The translations under genes and the position numbers were made by a program. DNA of 64,000 bases from Acidobacteriota bacterium (GTDB taxonomy: Bacteria > Acidobacteriota > DASWHO01), in contig DASWHO010000423.1 in assembly GCA_036398155.1 (NCBI GenBank), positions 3,003-67,002 of the forward strand. Direction: 5' to 3'. This document shows positions 6,014-61,998 of the stretch, in pieces. How positions within the stretch are numbered: position 1 is the first letter of the stretch; each line of letters starts with the position of its first letter. The notes under the pieces are model-generated. The model did not search any database. It was not told the DNA's origin and saw only the letters and a program-made list of their open reading frames with translations.

Positions 6014-7489
6014 GTGACCGAGCCCGCGCCCAAGCCCGCCGCCGATTGGTCGAGAGAGAACGATCCACCGAGCCGCCGGATCCGCCTGCTGGCGCTGGCC
6101 GCCGCACTCGGGATCGGCCTGCTCGCCTACCTGATGCGCGATCTGCTCGGCGCCCGCGGCATCGGGCCGCTCGGGGTCCTGGTGCTTTTGGGGATTTCGG
6201 TCGCGCTCTCGGGCGCGCCGCGCCGCATCGACCTGCGCACCGTCGGCTGGGGCATCGCCCTGCAGCTCATCCTCGCGCTGCTGATCCTGCGCTTCGAGAT
6301 CGGCGGGGTGCGCCCCGGCTACGCCCTGTTCAGCGCGATCGGCGCGATGGTGCGCCAGTTCCTGGCGTTCACCGACGAGGGCTCCAAGTTCGTGTTCGGG
6401 GTGCTGGCCGACCCGGTCGCGATGGATCAGGAGTTCGGCGCCGGCGCCGGGTTCGTGTTCGCCTTCCGCGCCCTGCCGACGATCATCTTCGTCAGCTCGT
6501 TCTTCACCATCCTCTACTACTTCGGCGTGCTGCAGTGGATCGTCAAGCTGATGGCGCGCGCCATGATGGTGGTGATGCGGACCAGCGGCGCCGAGTCGCT
6601 GTCGGCCGCCGCCAACGTGTTCATGGGCCAGACCGAGGCGCCGCTGATCGTCAAGCCCTACGTCGAGCCGATGACCCGCTCGGAGCTGCTGTCGCTGATG
6701 GTCGGCGGGATGGCGACCATCTCGGGCGGGGTGATGGCGGTGTACATCTCGCTGGGGGCCGATCCGGTGGCGCTCTTGACCGCCAGCGTGATGGCGGCGC
6801 CGTGCGCGCTGTATCTGACCAAGATCGTGATGCCCGAGCTCGATCAACCGGTGACCCGCGGCGTGATCCGAATGGAGGTGCCGCGCACCGACGTCAACGT
6901 GATCGACGCCGCCTCGCGCGGCGCCTCCGAAGGCACGTTCCTGGCGATCAACGTCGGAGCGATGCTGATCGCCTTTCTGGCCTTGATCGCCATGGTCAAT
7001 TTCATGCTCGGCTACATCCATATCGGCAGCGCCGCGCCCGACGCGGCCCCGGGCTGGGTCAGCTGGGGCTCGTTCCACGCCGGAGCATTTCACGATCAGC
7101 CGGGCCATGAAGCGTGCGCGGTGCTGTCGCTCAGCCGGCTGTTCTCGGTGGTGTTCGCGCCGCTCGCCTTTCTGATGGGGGTGCCGAGCGCCGACATCGG
7201 CCGGGTCGCGGACCTGCTCGGCACCAAGCTGGTGGCCAACGAGTTCGTCGCCTACGTCAAGCTCACCGGTCCCTATGCGCCGCTCTTGTCCGAGCGCGCC
7301 ACCGAGATCGCCACCATCGCGCTGTGCGGTTTCGCCAACTTCGCTTCGATCGGGATCCAGCTCGGCGGCATCGGCTCGATCGCGCCGAGCCGCCGCGGCG
7401 ACCTGTCGCGCCTCGGCGTCCGCGCGCTCTACTGCGGCTTCGTCGCCACCATGATCAACGCTGCGATCGCCGCCACCCTCTTGCCTTAG
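6014..7489 (+). CDS. nupC: Concentrative nucleoside transporter, NupC/CNT family
   Basis: Multi-TM protein with the CNT hallmark 'ANVFMGQTEAPL' and conserved C-terminal half (GFANFASIGIQLGG). Confidence 0.8.
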   Translation: MTEPAPKPAADWSRENDPPSRRIRLLALAAALGIGLLAYLMRDLLGARGIGPLGVLVLLGISVALSGAPRRIDLRTVGWGIALQLILALLILRFEIGGVRPGYALFSAIGAMVRQFLAFTDEGSKFVFGVLADPVAMDQEFGAGAGFVFAFRALPTIIFVSSFFTILYYFGVLQWIVKLMARAMMVVMRTSGAESLSAAANVFMGQTEAPLIVKPYVEPMTRSELLSLMVGGMATISGGVMAVYISLGADPVALLTASVMAAPCALYLTKIVMPELDQPVTRGVIRMEVPRTDVNVIDAASRGASEGTFLAINVGAMLIAFLALIAMVNFMLGYIHIGSAAPDAAPGWVSWGSFHAGAFHDQPGHEACAVLSLSRLFSVVFAPLAFLMGVPSADIGRVADLLGTKLVANEFVAYVKLTGPYAPLLSERATEIATIALCGFANFASIGIQLGGIGSIAPSRRGDLSRLGVRALYCGFVATMINAAIAATLLP

Positions 7490-7572
7490 GCGGCGGATAG
7501 GGCGCCGTCTGCGTCGTTGGGCTCACTCGGCCTTCTCCAGCGTACCTTTCTCAGTGCGACTCCACCGTTCCC
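7490..7572 (+). repeat. Stop-codon-adjacent double-hairpin repeat (head GCGGCGGATAGGGCGCCG + CTCCAGCGTACCTTTCTCAGTGCG), copy 1, sense to nupC
   Basis: Begins at the first nt after the nupC TAG. Near-identical sequence recurs after the STK, rplQ, lon, rpoC and ferredoxin-like genes (see findings). Confidence 0.7.
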
Positions 7573-9295: not shown

Positions 9296-9741
9296 GAGCC
9301 GCCCGCTCCCGCGCCGCCGCCCATGGTCTCCTGCTCGGTGAGCAGGTAGAGCCGCTGGACCCGGCCCTGGCGCAGCTGTTCGAGCATGCTGTCGATCGCC
9401 GCGAACGGAGCGGCGGCATCGGCCTTGAGGATGAACGGGTAGTCCGGGTTGGTCTCGGTCAGGGTGCGAGCGAAACCGGCCAGCGCGGCGACGCCGCCCG
9501 CCAGCGGATGGCTATCCTCGACCCCGGTGGTCACCTTGAGCGTGCCGTCCGGCGCCAGCGCGACGATCGCGGCGACCCGCGGCACCTCGGTGCGCTCCAA
9601 GGTCGGCGGCAGGCTGACGTTGGTTTTGTCCAATGTCGTGGTGGTGGTGATCATGAAGAAAACGATCAGCAGGAAGGCGATGTCGGCCATCGAGGCGGTC
9701 GGAACGTAGGCCTCGATCTGGGTGTAACGGCGCCGTTGCAT
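9292..9741 (-). CDS. exbD: ExbD/TolR-family biopolymer transport protein (copy 1)
   Basis: 'ASMADIAFLLIVFFMITTT' TM helix plus ExbD periplasmic domain. Confidence 0.8.
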   Translation of the reverse strand: MQRRRYTQIEAYVPTASMADIAFLLIVFFMITTTTTLDKTNVSLPPTLERTEVPRVAAIVALAPDGTLKVTTGVEDSHPLAGGVAALAGFARTLTETNPDYPFILKADAAAPFAAIDSMLEQLRQGRVQRLYLLTEQETMGGGAGAGGS

Positions 9742-9748
9742 GGTGGGC

Positions 9749-10553: not shown

Positions 10554-12302
10554 TTACCTGTCAATAGCCGGCGCCTTCTCCCCCTCGTGGACGGTGACGG
10601 TGCGGCCGGGCTCCAAGTCCGTCAATCGGTCGACTTGACCCGACGGCCAGCGCACCTCGAGCCGCTCCACCGTTTTGGCGCCGCCGAGCCCGAACAGCAG
10701 CCGCGGGTCGCTCTGCGACAGGTAGGAGTTGGCGCTGCGGGCCTCGCGCACCTGGGTCCGACCGCCGGCGACCAGCGTGACCCGAGCGCCGAACCCGTCG
10801 CGATTGCTGCGCCGGCCTCGCAGCACCACCCGCAGCCAGCCGCCGCGGTTGCCGCCGTCATTGCGCAGCAGCGCCGCGCGGTCGTTATTGCGGCTGATCA
10901 GCAGCTCGCGGTCGCCGTCGTCGTCCAGGTCGCCGAGCGCCAGGCCGCGGCTGACCCGCACGTCATTGATCGCGCCGCAGGCCCCGGTGACCTCGACGAA
11001 CTTGGCGCCGCCCAGGTTGCGGAACACCATGCCGCGCTGGGCGTAGGTGATGTTGTCTTTGAACAGATGGATGTTGTCGATGATGTGGCCGTTGACCACG
11101 ATGATGTCCTGCCAGCCGTCGCCGTCGTAATCGTCGAAAGCGGTGCCGAACCCGACGAACAGCAGACTCGGCTCGCCCAGGCCGGCCCGGTAGGTGGTGT
11201 CGGTGAAGCTATGGGCGCCGTCGTTGTGGTACAGCGTGTTGGTCTCCAGATCCAGATTGGTGACGAACAGCTCGGGCTTCTGATCGCCGTCGATGTCCGC
11301 GCTGTCGACCCCCATCCCGGCCATGGCCTTGCCGTCCTCACTGTAGCCGGCGCCCGAAAACAGCGACTCGTCGGCGAAAGTGCCGTCGCCGTTGTTGACG
11401 AACAGGTAGTTGATGGTCGAATCGTTGGCGCCGTAGAGGTCGGGATCGCCGTCGCCGTCGACGTCGGTCCAGACCACTCCGAGCCCTTTGCCCTCGGTGA
11501 TATAGAGCCCGGCCGCCCGGGTCGCGTCGCTGAAGCTGCCGTCGCCGTTGTTGCGATACAGGACCGGCGGGACCCCGTTGTAGACATCCGGATGACAGTA
11601 GGCGCGCTGCTGCAAGCGCAGGTTGCCGCAGAACTTGTTGTTGTCGAGCGTGAAGTCGACGTAGTTGGAGACGTAGAGATCGAGATCGCCGTCCAGATCG
11701 TAATCGGCGAACGCGGCCGAAGCGCCCCACAGCTTGGAATCGACCCCAGCCGCCTGGCTCACGTCGGTGAAGCGGCCGCCGCCGTCGTTGCGGTAGAGGA
11801 TGTTGGGTCCCAGCGCGGTGATGTAGATGTCGGAGTCGCCGTCGTTGTCGTAGTCGCCGAAGCTGACCCCCATCATCCAGCCGCGGCCGGCGACCCCGGC
11901 GCTGTCGGTGACGTCCTCAAAGCGGAGGGCGCCGAGGTTGCGGTAGAGCCGATTGGTCGGCGCCGGCCCTTGGTAGCCGGGCAGCGCGCTGCCGTTTACC
12001 AAGTACAGATCCATGCGCCCGTCGCCGTCGTAGTCGAAGATCCCGGCGCCCGAGCCCATGGTCTCGACCATGTACTTCTGCCCCGAACCGCCGTGGCGAT
12101 GGACGAAATCGACGCCGGCCTGGTCGGTGATGTCCACATAGGTGACCGCGGGCGTGCCCGGCGGCGCCGGCGGCGCAGGCTCGGGCCGGGCCGGAGCTCG
12201 CTCCTGCGACAGCGCAGTGATGGTCGCGATCATGACGACACCGGCGATCCAGCCGGCGCGCCAATGTAGGGGCGGGGCTGGTCCCCGCCCGAACGTTTTC
12301 AT
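10554..12302 (-). CDS. Secreted FG-GAP-repeat / ASPIC-UnbV (CRTAC1-like) protein
   Basis: Signal peptide ([30 protein letters not shown]). Repeated DxDGDG FG-GAP calcium-binding motifs. C-terminal ASPIC/UnbV-like segment (RVTLVAGGRTQVREARSANSYLSQSDPRLLFGLG). ATG overlaps the stop of the upstream ABC ATPase (ATGA). The 888-aa track ORF is a frame artefact. Confidence 0.65.
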   Translation of the reverse strand: MKTFGRGPAPPLHWRAGWIAGVVMIATITALSQERAPARPEPAPPAPPGTPAVTYVDITDQAGVDFVHRHGGSGQKYMVETMGSGAGIFDYDGDGRMDLYLVNGSALPGYQGPAPTNRLYRNLGALRFEDVTDSAGVAGRGWMMGVSFGDYDNDGDSDIYITALGPNILYRNDGGGRFTDVSQAAGVDSKLWGASAAFADYDLDGDLDLYVSNYVDFTLDNNKFCGNLRLQQRAYCHPDVYNGVPPVLYRNNGDGSFSDATRAAGLYITEGKGLGVVWTDVDGDGDPDLYGANDSTINYLFVNNGDGTFADESLFSGAGYSEDGKAMAGMGVDSADIDGDQKPELFVTNLDLETNTLYHNDGAHSFTDTTYRAGLGEPSLLFVGFGTAFDDYDGDGWQDIIVVNGHIIDNIHLFKDNITYAQRGMVFRNLGGAKFVEVTGACGAINDVRVSRGLALGDLDDDGDRELLISRNNDRAALLRNDGGNRGGWLRVVLRGRRSNRDGFGARVTLVAGGRTQVREARSANSYLSQSDPRLLFGLGGAKTVERLEVRWPSGQVDRLTDLEPGRTVTVHEGEKAPAIDR

Positions 12303-16844: not shown

Positions 16845-19292
16845 ATGGAACCTTCACAGCCCAACCGAATCGACGAGAGCAAGTTCACTCCGCTGGTACC
16901 GCTGCGCGATGTGATCGTCTTCCCCTACATGATGATGCCGTTCGTGGTCGGGCGGCGCAAATCGATTCTGGCGCTCGAGCACGCGCTGCTGCACGGCAAG
17001 CGCATCCTGCTGGCGACCCAGAAGGACGCCGCCACCGACGATCCCGGGGTCGAAGAGATCTTCCGCACCGGCACGATCGCCAACATCGTCCAGAGCCTCA
17101 AGCTGCCCAACGGCAACATCAAGGTGCTGGTCGAGGGCATCGAGCGCGCCCAGATCCTCGAGTTCCGCGACAACGAGGAGTTCCACGAGGCGCTGGTGCG
17201 CACCGCCAAGCGCAAGGTCGAGGTCACCGCCACGGTCGAGAAGGCGATGCAGGGGCTGCTGAGCCTGTTCGAGCAGTACATCAAGCTGAGCCAGAGCTTC
17301 TCGTACGAGGCGATGATCTCGGCGGTCCGGATCGACGATCCCGACCGGCTGACCGACACCATCTCGGCCCACCTGATGGTCGATCTGGAAGAGAAGCAGG
17401 CGCTGTTGGAGATGTTCGATCCGGTCGAGCGGCTCAACCGGATCGCCGAGATCCTCGAGATCGAAATCGAAAAGCTCCAGGTCGACAAGCGCATCCAGGG
17501 CCGGGTCAAGAAGCAGATGGAGAAGGCCCAGCGCGAGTACTACCTCAACGAGAAGCTCAAAGCGATCCAGAAGGAGCTGGGCAAGAAGGACAACCGCAAC
17601 AGCGACCTGGAGGAGCTGCGCAAGAAGATCGAAACCAAGAAGATGCCCAAGGAAGCGCGCGAGAAGGCCCAGCAGGAGCTCGAGCGGCTCGAAGCGATGC
17701 CGGCGATGAGCGCCGAATCGACCGTATCGCGCAACTACCTCGACTGGCTGCTCGGGATTCCGTGGGAGGAGCGCTCGCGCGAGAACCGCTCGCTCAAGCG
17801 CGCCGAGAAGGTGCTGCAGCAGGATCATTTCGGGCTGGAAAAAGTTAAAGAACGGATCCTCGAGTTCCTGGCGGTGCGCCAGCTGGTCAAGAAGCAGAAG
17901 GGCTCGATCCTCTGCTTCGTCGGGCCGCCGGGCGTCGGCAAGAGCTCGCTGGCCAAGTCGATCGCGCGCTCGACCGGCCGCAGATTCGTGCGGCTTTCGC
18001 TCGGCGGGGTGCGCGACGAGGCCGAGATCCGCGGTCACCGGCGCACCTACATCGGCGCCTATCCGGGCCAGATCGTCCAGTTGATGAAGAAGGCCACCAC
18101 CGTCAATCCGGTCTTTCTGCTGGATGAAGTCGACAAGATGAGCATGGATTTCCGCGGCGATCCGTCGGCCGCGCTGCTCGAGGTGCTCGACCCGGAGCAG
18201 AACAACTCCTTCGTCGACCACTATCTCGATACCGAATACGACCTCTCGCACGTCATGTTCATCGCCACCGCCAACGTGCTCCACACCATCCCGCGGGCGC
18301 TGCAAGACCGGATGGAGGTGATTCGGCTTTCGGGCTACACCCTCAAGGAGAAGATCGAAATCGCCAAACGCCATCTGATCGCCAAGCAGCTCCAGGCCCA
18401 CGGCCTGCACAAGCGCGGCATCCGTTTCACCGAAGAGGCGCTGCAGCGGGTGATCGAGAACTACACCCGCGAGGCCGGGGTGCGCAATTTGGAGCGCGAG
18501 ATCGCCAACATCTGCCGCAAGCTGGCGCGCCAGATCGTCACCAAACGCTCGACCCGTTACCCGCGGGTGGTGACCGGAGCCGCGGTCGAGCGTCATCTCG
18601 GGGTGCCGCGCTTCCGCAGCGGCCAGAAAGAGAAGATCGCCGGCGCCGGCCTCGCCACCGGGCTGGCCTGGACCGAGATGGGCGGCGAGCTGCTCAACAT
18701 CGAAGCGACCCTGATGCCCGGCAAGGGCCGGCTCAACATCACCGGCAAGCTCGGCGAGGTGATGCAGGAATCGGCCCACGCCGCGCTCTCGTACGTGCGC
18801 AGCAACGCGGCCCAGTTCGGCATCCCGCGCGACTTCCACCGCAGCTCCGACATCCACATCCACGTGCCCGAGGGCGCGATCCCCAAAGACGGCCCCAGCG
18901 CCGGGATCGCGATCGCCACCGCGCTGGTTTCGGCGCTGGCCGGCGTGCCGGTGCGCGACGACGTCGCGATGACCGGCGAGATCACCTTGCGCGGCCGGGT
19001 GCTGCCGATCGGCGGGGTCAAGGAAAAGCTGCTGGCGGCCCACCGGGCCGAGATCCTGCGGGTGCTGCTGCCGCGGGAGAACGAAAAGGACCTCTCCGAG
19101 ATTCCCGAAGAGGTGCGCCGAGAGCTCAAGATCGAGCTGGTCGAGAACATGAAGCAGGTGCTCGACGCCGTGCTGGTCAGCAAGCTCACGCCTCTGATCG
19201 AACCGATCAGCGCCTACCAGCCGGGCAGCAAGCACGACGTGCCTCCCTCCGAGGAGCACGACGCGGCCGACTCCCCCCACAACATCATCTAG
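16845..19292 (+). CDS. lon: ATP-dependent protease Lon
   Basis: Lon N-domain, AAA+ '[15 protein letters not shown]', protease '[17 protein letters not shown]' catalytic Ser motif. Confidence 0.9.
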
Positions 19293-19440
19293 GCGGCGGA
19301 GCTGCCGCTGGTCTCCATCCAGCGGCCTTCCGCTGCCCTAAGCGCCGTGCTCCGGCGCACGGGCAGACCTCGTCGTCATTCCGGCGCAAGCCGGAATCCA
19401 GCGGTCATTCCGACGCCGGGCGGAATCCAGCCCCGGAATT
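19293..19440 (+). repeat. Composite post-stop repeat: head hairpin GCGGCGGAGCTGCCGC + CAGCGGCCTTCCGCTG, then two tandem GTCATTCCG(N6-8)CGGAATCCAG hairpins
   Basis: Starts 1 nt after the lon TAG. The tandem hairpins are 19375-19401 and 19404-19430. A degenerate copy lies at 22004-22028. Confidence 0.65.
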
Positions 19441-19463: not shown

Positions 19464-21782
19464 ATGCTGGGGGCTCCCGAGCCGGTGAAAAAGATCGGCA
19501 AATACGAGGTTCAGCGCGAGCTCGGTCGCGGCGCCATGGCGGTGGTCTATGAGGCGATCGACACCGCGATCGAGCGCACCGTCGCGATCAAGGTCATCGC
19601 CGAAGGCCTGCTGCAGGGCGAGGAGGCGCGGCGCCGCTTTTACCAAGAGGCGCGCAGCGCCGGCCGGCTGTCGCATGAGAACATCCTGGTCATCTACGAC
19701 CTCGGCGAAGACGGCGGCCACCCGTTCATCGCCATGGAGCACCTGCGCGGCACCGATCTCAGGCGCCAGCTCGACCGCGACGGTCCGCCGAGCCTCCAAC
19801 GCACGCTCGATATCGCCGCCCAGATCGGGCGCGGACTCGAATACGCCCATCAGAACGGCGTCATCCATCGCGACATCAAGCCCTCCAACATCTGTCTGAC
19901 CCAGAGCGGCCGGGTCAAAATCATGGATTTCGGCATCGCCAAGCTGGTGTCGGCCGAAATGACTCGCACCGGACAGACCTTGGGCACCCCGTACTACATG
20001 GCGCCCGAACAGGTTCAAGGCGCCAAGATCGACGGCCGAGCCGACATCTTCGCCTTCGGCGTGGTGCTGTATGAGCTGCTGACCGGCGTGCGTCCGTTCG
20101 AGGGCAGCGACATGGCCAGCGTGCTCTACAAGGTCGTATTCAAGCCGCCGCCGCCGCTGCCGGAAGCACTGCCGGCCGCGCTCAAGGCCGTCGTCGAGCG
20201 CTGCCTGGCCAAGGATCCGGAGCAGCGCTACCCGGACTTTTCCGCGGTGCTGGTCGATCTCGAGCGTCTGGGCAGGGAGATCGCCGCCAACGAGGAGAGC
20301 CAGAAGACCCGCGTGGGGCTCGACCGAACCGTGGCGCGCACCCCGGCGGCCGCGCCTCCCGCCGCCACCCAGCGGCTTGCGCGCGGCGCTGAAACTCCGC
20401 CCCCGGCGGCGCCGCCATCGCTCGCCCCGGCGGCCGCCGCGCCGCTCGAGCCGGCCGCGGAGCGAGCCGAACCGATCGAGCTCGGCCCGCCGGACCGCCA
20501 GAGCCGCACCCGCACCGCCCTGCTGATCGCCGGCGCCGCCGGCATACTGGTGGTCGCGGCCGTTGCCGGTCTGCTGCTCGGTCGCGGCGAGGCTCCGCAG
20601 CGCTCGGCCGATTCGAATCCGGGTCCGACCGGCGCGGCTTCGACTCCGCCCGCGGTCGTTCCGGAGCCGGTTGAAGCCGGCCCAGCCCCCGATGGGGCCG
20701 GCGCCGCGACGGATTCACAGGCTGCGCCCGAAGCCGGGCCGACCTCACCGCCGGCGCAACCAGCCGCTGGCCCGTCGCAACCAACCACGGTCCCGACACC
20801 GAAATCGAAAAGCCCGCCGCCCAACCCACCGCGCGAGACCGCCGCGCCGTCCCCCTCCGCCATGCTGGTCCGGCAAGTCGAAGAGCAGGCGGCGGCGTTC
20901 CGGCGCGAGGTCGACCCGGAGCTGGCCGAGCGCACCGCGCCGGAGGACTTCGGCGCCGCCGCCGATCTCGAGCGGCAGCTCTTGGAACGCGCCCGCCGCG
21001 GCGATGCCGCGGTGCTCGGCGAGCTCCCCAGGCTCGGACAACGCTTCAACCGGGTTCAGGCGCGGGCGCTTTTGAGCCGGCTTCACGACCAAGTGCTGGA
21101 GGTCAAACAAGACGCCGCCAAGGCCGGTGCGCCCGGCCGCGCCAGCGCGCAATGGAGCGCCGCCGAAAGGCTGCTGCAGCAAGCCGGCGAACTGCGCTCG
21201 AACGGCAACTTGCGGGCCGCCGGGGCGGCGCTGCTCCAAGCCGAGCCGCTGTACCGCGAAGCGGCCGCGGAGGCGCGCGCCGCCGCGGCCGCGGAAGCGC
21301 ACGCCCGGATCTTGGCCAGCGCCCAAGAGGCCCTCGGCCGAGGCGATCCGGACGCGGCGCTGGCGGCGCTGAAAACGCTGCCGGAGGCGGAGCTCAAGCG
21401 GCCCAAGACCGCCGAGCTGCTGGCCCAGATCGAGCGGCTGCGGCGCGCGGCCGCGCCGACCACGGCGGCCAAAGAGACCGCTCCGCCCGCTCCGGCCTCC
21501 GAGCCCGCGCCGCGGGCGGTGGCGCCCGAGCCGGACGGCGCGATCCCGGTCAGCATCCGGCTGGCCAACGTCGTCGGCGTGCGCCGGGTGACGCTCTTTT
21601 TCGGCTCGCTCGGGACCGGCGTGCGCCCCAACCGGCGGATCATGAAGTCGGTCGGCGACGCGACCTACAGGACCGAGCTCGATCCCAAGGACATCGGCTC
21701 GGATGGGATCAGCTACGAGATCCAGGTCCAAACCGTCAACGGGTCGTACATCGCGGACCGCCGCGAAATCCGCCCCCGTTAA
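19464..21782 (+). CDS. Ser/Thr protein kinase with long Pro/Ala-rich low-complexity linker, a helical (TPR-like) region and a C-terminal domain of unknown function
   Basis: Hanks kinase subdomains (GRGAMAVVYEA..AIK; HRDIKPSN; DFGIAK; GTPYYMAPE). Single TM-like segment (ALLIAGAAGILVVAAVAGLLL) after the kinase domain. Confidence 0.75.
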   Translation: MLGAPEPVKKIGKYEVQRELGRGAMAVVYEAIDTAIERTVAIKVIAEGLLQGEEARRRFYQEARSAGRLSHENILVIYDLGEDGGHPFIAMEHLRGTDLRRQLDRDGPPSLQRTLDIAAQIGRGLEYAHQNGVIHRDIKPSNICLTQSGRVKIMDFGIAKLVSAEMTRTGQTLGTPYYMAPEQVQGAKIDGRADIFAFGVVLYELLTGVRPFEGSDMASVLYKVVFKPPPPLPEALPAALKAVVERCLAKDPEQRYPDFSAVLVDLERLGREIAANEESQKTRVGLDRTVARTPAAAPPAATQRLARGAETPPPAAPPSLAPAAAAPLEPAAERAEPIELGPPDRQSRTRTALLIAGAAGILVVAAVAGLLLGRGEAPQRSADSNPGPTGAASTPPAVVPEPVEAGPAPDGAGAATDSQAAPEAGPTSPPAQPAAGPSQPTTVPTPKSKSPPPNPPRETAAPSPSAMLVRQVEEQAAAFRREVDPELAERTAPEDFGAAADLERQLLERARRGDAAVLGELPRLGQRFNRVQARALLSRLHDQVLEVKQDAAKAGAPGRASAQWSAAERLLQQAGELRSNGNLRAAGAALLQAEPLYREAAAEARAAAAAEAHARILASAQEALGRGDPDAALAALKTLPEAELKRPKTAELLAQIERLRRAAAPTTAAKETAPPAPASEPAPRAVAPEPDGAIPVSIRLANVVGVRRVTLFFGSLGTGVRPNRRIMKSVGDATYRTELDPKDIGSDGISYEIQVQTVNGSYIADRREIRPR

Positions 21783-22310
21783 CCCGGCGGCGGATCTGCC
21801 GCCATCTGCTTCGTTGCGCTTGGTCGGGCTCCTCCAGCGTACGTTTCAGTACGCTTCCGTCGCCCTCCCAGCGCGCGCCTCGCATCTGACGGCAGCTCCA
21901 CCGCCCACCATGCCGTGCTGTGGTGCTGGCGTGGGCTTTGTGCCCGTTCGGCGACTTCGCTTCGCTCGTCTCGCCCTGGTCCGCGCGCGCAGCGCTGCAG
22001 CTCGTCATTCCGGTGCAAGCGGCATCCAAAGCCCAGGCTGACGTAGATCCGCCGGCATGCAGTTGCCAAATGACGTCGCGTGCCGTACCGCAGAAGGGCG
22101 GCGGAAGGCCGCAGGATGGAGACGAGCGAAGCGAGGTCGACCCGAACGTGCACAGCACCCGCCCCAGCACCAGTGCACGGGGCAGAGGGCGGTGGAGAGG
22201 GTGCCGGATGCGAGGCGGGCGAAAGGAGGCCGACGGAAGCGTACTGAAAGGTACGCTGGAGGAGGCCGACTGAGCCCAACGAAGCAGACGGCGCCCTATC
22301 CGCCGCCGGG
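21783..22310. repeat. 528-bp quasi-palindrome formed by two convergent copies of the post-stop repeat (sense to STK at left, sense to rplQ at right) around a degenerate GTCATTCCGGTGCAAGCGGCATCCA hairpin
   Basis: Left arm 21786-21972 and the reverse complement of right arm 22119-22308 align over ~185 bp. Heads CCCGGCGGCGGATCTGCCGCC / CCCGGCGGCGGATAGGGCGCC each start within 4 nt of a stop codon. Confidence 0.7.
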
Positions 22311-22910
22311 CTACTTGGCGTTGTCGTCTTTGGGCGGTTGTTGCTTGCGCAACTTGTCGGTCTTGGCCGATTTGGCCTTGGCCTTGTCGCGGCCCAAGCC
22401 GCCTTTGAGCTTGTCGACCAGTTTGCGGGTCCGGCCCTTGGCTGGCCCGGCCGCGGCGCCGGATTCGGCCGCGCCCGCCGCCGCGCCCTTCTCCCCGGCC
22501 GCAGGGGCGCTCTTCTTCTTGCCCTCGGCCTTCTTCTCGGTCCGCAGCGGCTTGGTGGAATCGACCAGCTCGATCAGCGCCATTTCGGCGCCGTCGCCGA
22601 TCCGCTGCCCGAGCTTGGTGATCCGGGTGTAGCCGCCGGGCCGCTCGGCGTAGCGCCCGGAGAGCGTATCGAACAGATTGTGCAGCACCGCGCGATCGCG
22701 CACGATCGCCGCCGCCTGGCGGCGCGCGTGCAAGCCCTCCCGCTTCGACAGCGTGATCACCTTCTCAGCGAAACGGCGCAGCTCCTTGGCCCGCGGCAGG
22801 GTGGTCACCACCCGCTCTTCGCGCAGCAGCGAAGTGGTCATGTTGCGCAGCATCGCCTGGCGGTGCTTGGTCACCACCCCGAGCTTGCGCTGTCGAATTC
22901 GATGTCGCAT
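22311..22910 (-). CDS. rplQ: 50S ribosomal protein L17 with ~70-aa Lys/Ala-rich C-terminal extension
   Basis: '[47 protein letters not shown]' L17 core. The tail is rich in K/A/G. Confidence 0.85.
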
Positions 22911-32566: not shown

Positions 32567-32592
32567 GGCCGTCTACGCCTCGCGCCGCCGGT

Positions 32593-32750
32593 GGCCAGTA
32601 ACACCCAAATCGGTAGCGGATCGCGCCGTCATCGAGGGCGGAGGCAAGGCGCGCCGACGCAGCCATAGCAAGCCGCTATGGCGAGGAGGCGCAACGCCGC
32701 ATCCGCCCTTGAGGGCCAGCGAGCCGCAACCGATTTGGGTGTTACGGGCC
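32593..32750. repeat. 158-bp imperfect palindrome (long-hairpin element) filling the abnormal 185-bp rplP-rpmC spacer
   Basis: Outer arms GGCCAGTAACACCCAAATCGGT (32593-32614) and ACCGATTTGGGTGTTACGGGCC (32729-32750) are 21/22 complementary. Central hairpin GCCATAGC-AAGCC-GCTATGGC is at 32662-32682. Inner arms are partly complementary. Confidence 0.75.
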
Positions 32751-32751
32751 A

Positions 32752-41960: not shown

Positions 41961-41981
41961 GGGAGGGGACAAGCCCCTCCC
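41961..41981 (-). terminator. GC-rich hairpin (GGGAGGGGC-TTGT-CCCCTCCC) about 45 nt downstream of rpoC; putative terminator/attenuator without U-tract
   Basis: Perfect 9-bp stem read from the sequence. It follows the post-stop head CCCGGCGGCGGATCTCCGGCGCCC (42002-42025). Confidence 0.4.
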
Positions 41982-42025
41982 CTACATCTACATGCCACTG
42001 AGGGCGCCGGAGATCCGCCGCCGGG

Positions 42026-61961: not shown

Positions 61962-61998
61962 CCGTGCCCGGCGGCGGATCTGCCGCCGGCTGCTTCAG
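61962..61998 (+). repeat. Short copy (head only) of the post-stop repeat: CCCGGCGGCGGATCTGCCGCCGG-CTGCTTC
   Basis: 7 nt after the ferredoxin-like gene's TAG. Sits between convergent genes. Confidence 0.55.

Follow-up and report, generated by a model that had tools for sequence, protein, structure and literature searches.

What kind of sequence makes the entire 528-bp spacer between two convergent genes an imperfect palindrome? The question is raised by positions 21783-22310 of a 64,000-nucleotide stretch (hereafter the window) of contig DASWHO010000423.1 from an uncultured Acidobacteriota bacterium, where the spacer lies between a Ser/Thr kinase gene and the ribosomal protein gene rplQ. The evidence below indicates that the palindrome is made up of two distinct copies of a non-coding repeat, high in copy number and able to form hairpins, that resembles the repetitive extragenic palindromic (REP) elements and MITEs, the miniature transposable elements with inverted repeats. 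It is thus an element of a known REP/MITE-like kind, here in an uncultured acidobacterial organism.

Pfam profiles identify the flanking genes as Pkinase (19464-21782, plus strand) and Ribosomal_L17 (22311-22910, minus strand). Repeat finding in the window resolved the spacer into inverted arms at 21780-21951 and 22142-22313 (172 nt, 80% complementary) and a second inverted pair at 21952-21972 and 22119-22139 (21 nt, 95%). Folded as one strand, the whole spacer reaches -388 kcal/mol against -249 ± 6.5 for shuffles (z = -21.5). Hence, an earlier reading of the window made from its letters and translations (the sequence-only reading) was correct in describing an imperfect palindrome between a convergent kinase and rplQ. 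It had also placed the start of each arm close to the stop of its own gene: both in fact open at the first base after the stop codon, the left arm as TAA followed by CCCGGCGGCGGAT and the right arm, on the minus strand, as TAG followed by CCCGGCGGCGGAT. The AGCGTAC-loop-GTACGCT hairpin that it noted lies at 21836-21855, with a mirror copy in the right arm. Three other descriptions hold in part. The head of each arm does form a hairpin stem as claimed, but this stem is the base of a 121-nt rod hairpin, closed by pairing of the head with a tail located at element positions 98-121. The arms of about 190 nt are real, but each runs on as a composite of ~264 nt ending in a degenerate REP. The central motif GTCATTCCGG..GCAAGC..GGCATCCA (that is, GTCATTCC) is located at 22003-22028 as described, but rather than being a separate element it is the REP that forms the 3' part of an arm. 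The components of the locus, with scores from the covariance model R1 described below, are as follows:

21780-21782, plus strand: TAA stop of the kinase gene; the left element begins at the next base.
21783-21918, plus strand: left core, subfamily 'CTGCC', with CCC and the head GGCGGCGGATCTGCCGCCATCTGC, the apical hairpin at 21836-21855, the tail GCATCTGACGGCAGCTCCACCGCC and a conserved 12-nt trailer.
Within 21783-21918, folding best on the minus strand: left core rod hairpin of 121 nt (R1: 138 bits on the minus strand, 44 on the plus strand).
21919-21972, plus strand: left extension module (element positions ~134-190), ending CGACTTCGCTTCGCTCGTCTC.
21973-22046, plus strand: left linker and degenerate CGTC-type REP (CGTCATTCCGGTGCAAGCGGCATCCA, 22003-22028), which together finish the left composite on its 3' side.
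22047-22118, minus strand: right linker and degenerate CGTC-type REP (minus-strand CGTCATTTGGCAACTGCATGCC, ~22050-22076), the 3' end of the right composite.
22119-22174, minus strand: right extension module.
22175-22310, minus strand: right core, subfamily 'AGGGC', with head GGCGGCGGATAGGGCGCCGTCTGC and tail GCATCCGGCACCCTCTCCACCGCC.
Within 22175-22310, folding best on the plus strand: right core rod hairpin (R1: 141 bits on the plus strand, 36 on the minus strand).
22311-22313, minus strand: TAG stop of rplQ, at a codon position shared with the insertion-free relatives.

Is this sequence confined to the spacer? Scans with a 27-nt head pattern, GGCGGCGGATNNGNCGCCNNCTGCNTC, gave four matches in the window against none expected from shuffles. 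In metagenome contigs from JGI the same pattern recovered 87 stretches; merging those with identical flanks left 78 distinct sites, and removal of four chance matches left at least 74. Almost all of the 87 stretches come from three metagenomes (Ga0214471, Ga0214472 and Ga0326597), the first two of which also contain the rplQ locus of the window. The window stems from a metagenome population: RplQ is encoded identically on ENA and JGI sample contigs, five of which also have a spacer of 100% identity. A looser pattern, CCCGGCGGCGGATNNGNCGCC, was compared with reference genomes and yielded, among the matches listed, only chance hits in unrelated high-G+C genomes with no extended similarity; a plasmid collection gave no match. 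The sequence-only reading had held that the same module was installed once per gene, as two convergent stop-adjacent copies analogous to REP/BIME elements. This is supported, and the further copies whose absence would have spoken against it exist in the window and in the metagenome contigs. The other copies in the window are:

7489-7550, plus strand: truncated 62-nt copy with 95% identity to the right arm; it overlaps the TAG that ends a gene for a nucleoside transporter.
19292-19309, plus strand: degenerate head overlapping the TAG stop of lon; two intact CGTC-type REPs come after it (19376-19401, 19405-19430).
42011-42025, minus strand: truncated head directly 3' of the TAG of rpoC, adjoined by a GTAG-type REP at 41961-41985.
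61967-61996, plus strand: solo head of 30 nt in the 40-nt spacer of two convergent genes.

Comparisons within the family bear on how the two arms came to face each other. Over 138 nt the left arm has 95% identity to the copy at locus L179, and over 192 nt it has 87.5% to that at L154; the right arm matches L125 at 100% over 123 nt and L137 at 89.6% over 193 nt. Between the two arms, which represent different subfamilies, identity is 81%. As each is nearer to copies elsewhere (87-100%) than to its partner, the palindrome did not arise by local duplication.

As relatives we took contigs encoding RplQ homologues at 74% identity, with rpoA-rplQ and a convergent kinase gene; a homologue search with the kinase itself returned only kinase-domain paralogues and no orthologues. 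On five of these contigs the rplQ/kinase spacer is 47-48 nt long and holds a plain hairpin, AAGGGCAGAC-GCA-GTCTGCCCTT, and the rplQ TAG occupies the same codon as in the window. Since the relatives keep this short spacer, the 528 bp are a lineage-specific insertion that starts exactly 3' of the native TAG. A comparable replacement is seen in the lon-kinase spacer, where a relative has a TGA stop and a canonical hairpin with a T-run while the window has a TAG, a degenerate head and the two CGTC REPs. Ancestral terminator-like hairpins are thus gone from both spacers here. No family copy was found in ~33 kb of the relatives' DNA, a sample too small to call these organisms free of the family. Within the family, the loci L155 (2537-3022) and L203 (2500-2604) have flanks that are 99.9% identical and differ by ~380 nt in element content at the same post-stop site, L155 carrying the full composite with a further palindromic module and L203 a head plus 62 nt. 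This difference shows a recent rearrangement; the fetched contigs offered this one rearranged site and no empty site that would make a clean presence/absence polymorphism.

On a sixth relative contig (L209, 4021-4640) the rplQ/kinase spacer is filled by 620 bp of unrelated, repeat-rich sequence, in which AGCACGGCTCGGCCGGGCCGT.CGCGGAT.GCTC recurs in both direct and inverted orientation. This convergent spacer has been colonised independently.

The placement of the copies is strongly patterned. Upstream genes were called at each locus from codon-position G+C, and 73 copies were analysed. In 60 of the 73 the upstream gene lies on the same (sense) strand, and 44 of these 60 have its stop within -1 to +7 nt, a position that thus accounts for about 60% of family copies. 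Among the 44, the stop is at exactly 3 nt in 24 ('TAG CCC') and overlaps the element in seven ('cTA|G'). The upstream gene is antisense in the remaining 13 of 73, some of which abut start codons. The post-stop, sense-oriented bias predicted by the sequence-only reading is therefore a property of the family at large. The stops beside the element are TAG in 34 cases, TAA in seven and TGA in three; the corresponding figures for genes of the window are 32, 10 and 18. TGA usually dominates at 66% G+C. TAG is the most frequent stop of this lineage at 53-62% (32 of 60 window genes, and 13 of 21 genes of the ribosomal protein cluster in the window organism and a relative, L205). The specific signal is a preference for TAG and TAA over TGA, with the shortage of TGA its clearest component.

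The same trinucleotides recur where no stop is concerned: in a listing judged by eye, about 13 of the 29 copies not beside a stop have TAG or TAA at the same position, as a target or a tag would. A tally over all heads puts one of these two trinucleotides in front of about 74% of them, in most cases 3 nt from the stem. The base before the TAG varies (G 13, C 9, T 3 and A 1, counted from the flanks) and the rplQ TAG is native, which suggests that TAG is a target rather than a part of the element. The copies that R1 alone detects (L172, L160, L177 and L189) likewise abut TAG. The window contains elements in both orientations, and its GC skew is essentially of one sign; hence, the polarity follows the gene and not replication.

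The alignment of family copies revealed a common core of 121-133 nt. Its head has the consensus GGCGGCGGAT(CTGC or AGGG)CGCC(A or G)TCTGC, and its tail, GCAGCTGACGGCAGCTCCACCGCC or GCATCCGGCACCCTCTCCACCGCC, is imperfectly complementary to it in reverse; from one subfamily to another the variants of the two ends change together. As the complementarity runs inward to the apical AGCGTAC...GTACGCT hairpin, the core is a single rod hairpin. Each arm in the window (~264 nt) joins this 121-nt rod core to an extension and a degenerate CGTC-type, dRS3-like REP, and the 'centre' of the palindrome consists of the two degenerate 3' REPs face to face. Tail-to-tail pairs like that in the window are also present at L197 and L156, and probably at L154. 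The extension is found in many copies, ending GTCGACNTCGCTNCGCTCGTCTCC (21 aligned copies, including both arms), and in family loci is followed by a linker that leads to CGTCATTCCGGCGCAAGCCGGAATCCA; no consensus structure was found for the extension (positions 134-190) on either strand. The breakpoints at which copies depart from one another recur at about 27, 50, 60, 80, 121, 133, 190 and 220 nt. These shared positions mark the family as a mosaic, and its modules (core, extension, CGTC REP, GTAG REP, a 'GAGATACGGGGACTGGTACGAATTTCCGG' module and a 'CCAGGGGGTGTGGGGGAG' module) are assembled in the manner of the bacterial and neisserial interspersed mosaic elements (BIMEs and NIMEs).

The CGTC-1 class of REPs has a CGTC tag, an 8-bp stem starting with AT, a 4-nt loop and a CCA tail, and corresponds to dRS3 of Neisseria (PMC3733652). 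The intact CGTC REPs (19376-19401 in the window and those of family loci) have this build, as CGTC-ATTCCGGC-GCAA-GCCGGAAT-CCA; the ones inside the spacer (22003-22028, plus; ~22050-22076, minus) are degenerate versions of these. Two further modules deserve mention. In one subfamily (L121, L151, L174 and L191) a conserved promoter-like module, AAACTTGACTSAAATGGCAYG..TC.AC.ATACC...TTCTAG, takes the place of the extension ~130-200 nt after the head. It points away from the core, and the copies that carry it have CTAG at their left end, with either CTAG or CTAA at their right. The GTAG-type REP, TGTAGGGGAGGGGCTTGTCCCCTCCC, occurs in the window downstream of rpoC (41961-41985, minus) and at 12266-12290 (plus), and in relatives at the kinase locus (L205 11742-11767, L206 7453-7478, L209 5746-5771, L210 4097-4122). 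That of L205 falls in the called kinase open reading frame (ORF), suggesting an intragenic REP. The two intact CGTC REPs of the window stand in tandem in the lon-kinase spacer.

To characterize the fold, 39 core copies were aligned, an RNAalifold consensus was computed for each strand, and the covariance model R1 was obtained; sense and antisense are defined relative to the upstream gene. On the sense strand the consensus has 35 pairs and reaches -52.0 kcal/mol; on the antisense strand it has 41 pairs and reaches -81.6 kcal/mol. In the antisense structure 98.1% of the alignment cells pair and 11 pairs have changed on both sides; its covariation score was reached by none of 500 shuffles, and controls in which the structure was slid fall to 27-46% paired. 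Head and tail pair over 21 bp at the base of the 41-pair rod, as in REP doublets forming hairpins (REPINs). Single copies behave likewise: as RNA they fold at -62 to -65 kcal/mol in sense and -80 to -87 in antisense, and as DNA the two arms reach -27 and -31 in sense and -37 and -40 in antisense, in line with their R1 scores (44 and 36 bits against 138 and 141). The folding that the sequence-only reading had proposed to examine thus turns out to be a stable, covarying rod hairpin that is better formed on the antisense strand.

The asymmetry arises from G·U pairs: when the same pairs are compared with their mirror images, the antisense strand has 119 G·U cells and the sense strand five. Its source is about five columns with C/T opposite an invariant G on the antisense strand, the reverse case being absent, and all 4-5 uncompensated transitions in the stem are of this kind. 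A mutational bias was considered as a cause and rejected, as unpaired and extension columns have no matching C/T excess.

Taken together, these observations make it probable that the repeat is a non-autonomous mobile element of REPIN, MITE or BIME type, and that the spacer holds two separately acquired members of different subfamilies. Each ~264-nt member sits head-first right behind the stop of its own gene, and at two convergent genes this placement gives the tail-to-tail quasi-palindrome. Insertion would take place beside TAG, or in fewer cases beside TAA, with its polarity fixed, and stop codons may be the main tolerated source of such sites at 66% G+C. Compensatory changes maintain the rod fold, and G·U pairs are tolerated on one strand only, that complementary to the mRNA of the upstream gene; hence, the constrained form appears to be a single strand. 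This is most likely single-stranded DNA during mobilisation, possibly RNA in the antisense direction, rather than a sense 3' untranslated region (3'-UTR). Movement at TAG targets by an HUH/Y1-like single-strand mechanism would be compatible with these features. The sequence-only reading had left the choice between a 3'-UTR element and a mobile one: the 47-48-nt spacers of relatives, the identities of the arms, the mosaic build and the polymorphism between strains favour the latter, while the antisense fold, the lack of a U-tract and the copies at start codons weaken the former. A secondary role as terminator or barrier is plausible from the sequence because the ancestral hairpins have been replaced, with the sense version being the weaker fold.

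Several points weigh against this interpretation. The 74 sites lie on fragmentary metagenome contigs that possibly derive from two or more closely related species. The window and about 650 kb of related contigs yielded no transposase of any kind, and mobility is read from the distribution of copies only. A regular expression for HUH/Y1 motifs gave no match in the window and about 600 kb of these contigs, and the REP-associated tyrosine transposase (RAYT) for which the sequence-only reading suggested a search was likewise not found there. Clustering of ORFs of at least 90 aa from 80 loci and the window yielded no multi-copy transposase-like ORF, only translations of the repeat; the ORFs between inverted heads look like ordinary genes, and the fetched loci showed no insertion sequence (IS). 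About five independent columns, inherited by many copies, underlie the strand asymmetry (p about 0.03), and with so few independent events it is moderate evidence. Because TAG is already the commonest stop of the lineage, its enrichment beside the element is modest. The inverted repeat of the tail is not terminal, being followed by 12 or more conserved nt and then by further modules, and the right ends vary between subfamilies, CTAG or CTAA closing the four 'promoter-type' copies and a second solo head closing others, so that the boundaries are imprecise. Target-site duplication is ambiguous across the family. Moreover, TAG and the better fold are on opposite strands, a poor fit to IS608, whose folding strand carries the target 5' of its left end, and CTAG at both ends in some subfamilies would suit a DDE-type MITE with target duplication.

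This last possibility, a cut-and-paste MITE moved by a DDE transposase (e.g., of the IS5 or IS630 kind) that duplicates CTAG, TAG or TA, would explain the stop bias by the rarity of TA sites together with selection. The inverted head/tail repeat of 24 nt, though imperfect, has variable blocks (CTGCC or AGGGC) that match at both ends within a subfamily, and internally deleted derivatives retain both termini (L119). Flanks resembling duplications are seen at L138 (CCTAG/CCTAG) and L159 (AGCTA/AGCTA), each over 5 nt, and as CTAG on the left with CTAG or CTAA on the right of the four 'promoter-type' copies. However, the 3' copy of the repeat is not at the boundary and the complementarity spans the whole 121 nt; the clean rplQ/kinase site has no duplication (TAA left, CTA right); copies keep an almost fixed polarity to the stop, palindromic CTAG sites included; and a strand-asymmetric G·U pattern is meaningless for recognition of double-stranded terminal inverted repeats. 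No DDE transposase with these ends was seen in the window and fetched contigs. We therefore regard this explanation as possible but unlikely. The same doubtful standing applies to a further pair of ideas: that the family is moved by some other, strand-specific single-strand DNA recombination system, with a targeting mode between IS200/IS605 and integron attC, that uses TAG/TAA as landing mark and recognises the 121-nt bottom-strand hairpin, or that the antisense hairpins are barriers selected by the host to protect the 3' ends of genes against convergent transcription.

Slightly less credible is the proposal that the repeat is a selected element of the sense mRNA 3' end (a terminator, stabiliser or processing site) whose spread reflects its function. 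Copies do stand at the operon ends of rplQ, rpoC and lon. The plain hairpin of relatives at rplQ/kinase, or their T-run hairpin at lon/kinase, is absent here, such that the repeats may have taken over termination, and the sense strand still folds at about -62 to -65 kcal/mol. Yet the sense consensus is far weaker than the antisense (-52 against -82 kcal/mol, with five G·U cells against 119), 13 of the 73 copies have an antisense upstream gene, with some at start codons, and the mosaic family differs between near-identical strains. The spacer contains neither a sigma-70 nor a terminator consensus, and the heads are followed by ATCTGCTTCG with no T-run or U-tract, unlike an intrinsic terminator. 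Searches against Rfam 15 detected only tRNAs in the window, the best hits in 21700-22400 scoring 11-12 bits with E above 2. A comparable rod hairpin also stands in the rplP-rpmC operon junction, where termination would be harmful.

A functional RNA from the antisense strand, either a hairpin barrier to convergent or antisense transcription ahead of the gene's 3' end or a small antisense RNA, is improbable by our estimate. It would account for the better-folding strand being the one read towards the gene's stop, and the window pair puts one such hairpin before each gene. Among 31 stop-adjacent copies with a downstream gene on the contig, 17 lie between convergent genes by a count from the listing; the other 14 are between co-directional genes, an arrangement that offers no evident transcript of the antisense strand. 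No U-tract follows the hairpin, and the scan found no antisense promoter consensus.

We consider a local inverted duplication of one 3' flank, or genuine overlapping coding ORFs, as highly improbable in spite of the near-complete palindrome and its open frames of 166 and 117 aa, because the arms are of different subfamilies and closer to many other copies than to each other, while the ORFs lack Pfam matches and 1-nt indels between family copies break any reading frame. These two ORFs, dismissed as artefacts by the sequence-only reading as well, and similar ones across the genome should be treated so in annotation; the covariance model can be used for masking such spurious ORFs and for mapping the family.

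An integron attC site was also considered for the element and rejected: the RYYYAAC/GTTRRRY core sites are missing, the ends reading CCCGGCGGCGG ... CTCCACCGCCC, and copies are dispersed after housekeeping genes, not in cassette arrays.

How does the family relate to known systems? REPs are mostly located downstream of ORFs, between convergent or co-directional genes; their termini often supply a TAG stop, and they are commonly arranged as mosaic clusters or as head-to-head dimers (Di Nocera et al. 2013, PMC3733652). With TAG-abutting REPs, dimers and mosaics already on record there, the present family belongs to a known kind. In Acidobacteria, Y1 transposases flanked by terminal inverted repeats (TIRYTs) have been reported, and the phylum is not among the hosts given for CGTC and GTAG REPs (PMC3733652). 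The unusual features here are the 121-nt rod unit, the near-fixed polarity at stops and the strand-specific fold.

REPINs with their RAYT (Bertels & Rainey; PMC3116915, PMC3337134) resemble the family in being high-copy, non-coding and intergenic, in forming long hairpins of ~100-120 nt from two inverted ends, and in having subfamilies and decayed singlets (here the solo heads). The mechanistic models that appear to lie nearest, RAYT/REPIN and IS200/IS605-type single-strand transposition, share hairpin recognition and one-orientation insertion 3' of a short motif without duplication (PMC3337134, PMC6006769). Unlike REPINs, the family comes with no RAYT found in the window or related contigs, has a TAG tag with a variable preceding base in place of a fixed GTAG, and folds better on the strand opposite TAG; the end sequence of one subfamily is non-palindromic, and the unit is joined to further modules. 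Among the CGTC/GTAG REPs, the BIMEs of E. coli and dRS3/NIMEs of Neisseria, the likeness lies in the central motif, which fits CGTC-1, and in the GTAG-type REP that is also in the window (PMC3733652), whereas the dominant unit here is a 121-nt rod and not a REP of 20-40 nt (PMC3733652). Hairpin-type MITEs (ERIC, Correia/NEMIS, RUP) are alike in length (100-160 nt), inverted ends, complementarity of the whole or the termini, sites near coding regions and indel subfamilies; the family differs in its fixed polarity to the stop and strand-specific G·U pairs, and has no demonstrated target duplication or parent IS. Two other resemblances are purely functional. IS608 (like ISDra2, of the IS200/IS605 group) inserts one-way 3' of a short motif without duplication, but TnpA was not found here and the folding and TAG-bearing strands are opposite. 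Integron attC sites are folded on the bottom strand just after an ORF, but IntI was not found, core sites are absent from the ends and the copies are dispersed.

The locus thereby documents a rich REP/REPIN/MITE-like mosaic system in an uncultured acidobacterial lineage, with a clean comparison of filled and empty spacers. Its combination of insertion immediately past stop codons, fixed polarity and a fold conserved opposite the mRNA strand makes the family a good test case for what brings small repeats to the 3' ends of genes, target chemistry or selection, and for whether they replace ancestral terminators.

Two other palindromic sequences of the window lie beside stop codons. At 32592-32751 (sense on the minus strand), directly 3' of the rplP TAG inside the ribosomal protein operon, is another rod hairpin of ~160 nt with 23-nt ends TGGCCCGTAACACCCAAATCGGT and a folding energy of about -117 kcal/mol. 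It is single-copy in all the DNA fetched, and the rplP-rpmC spacer of the relative with 74% RplQ identity is only 24 nt. The second, at 9710-9748, is the 39-nt spacer of two convergent genes (stops at 9709 and 9749), which in its entirety is the palindrome GCCTCGATCTGGGTGTAACGGCGCCGTTGCATGGTGGGC; it has a GGGTGTAAC-type motif in common with the ends of the rplP hairpin.

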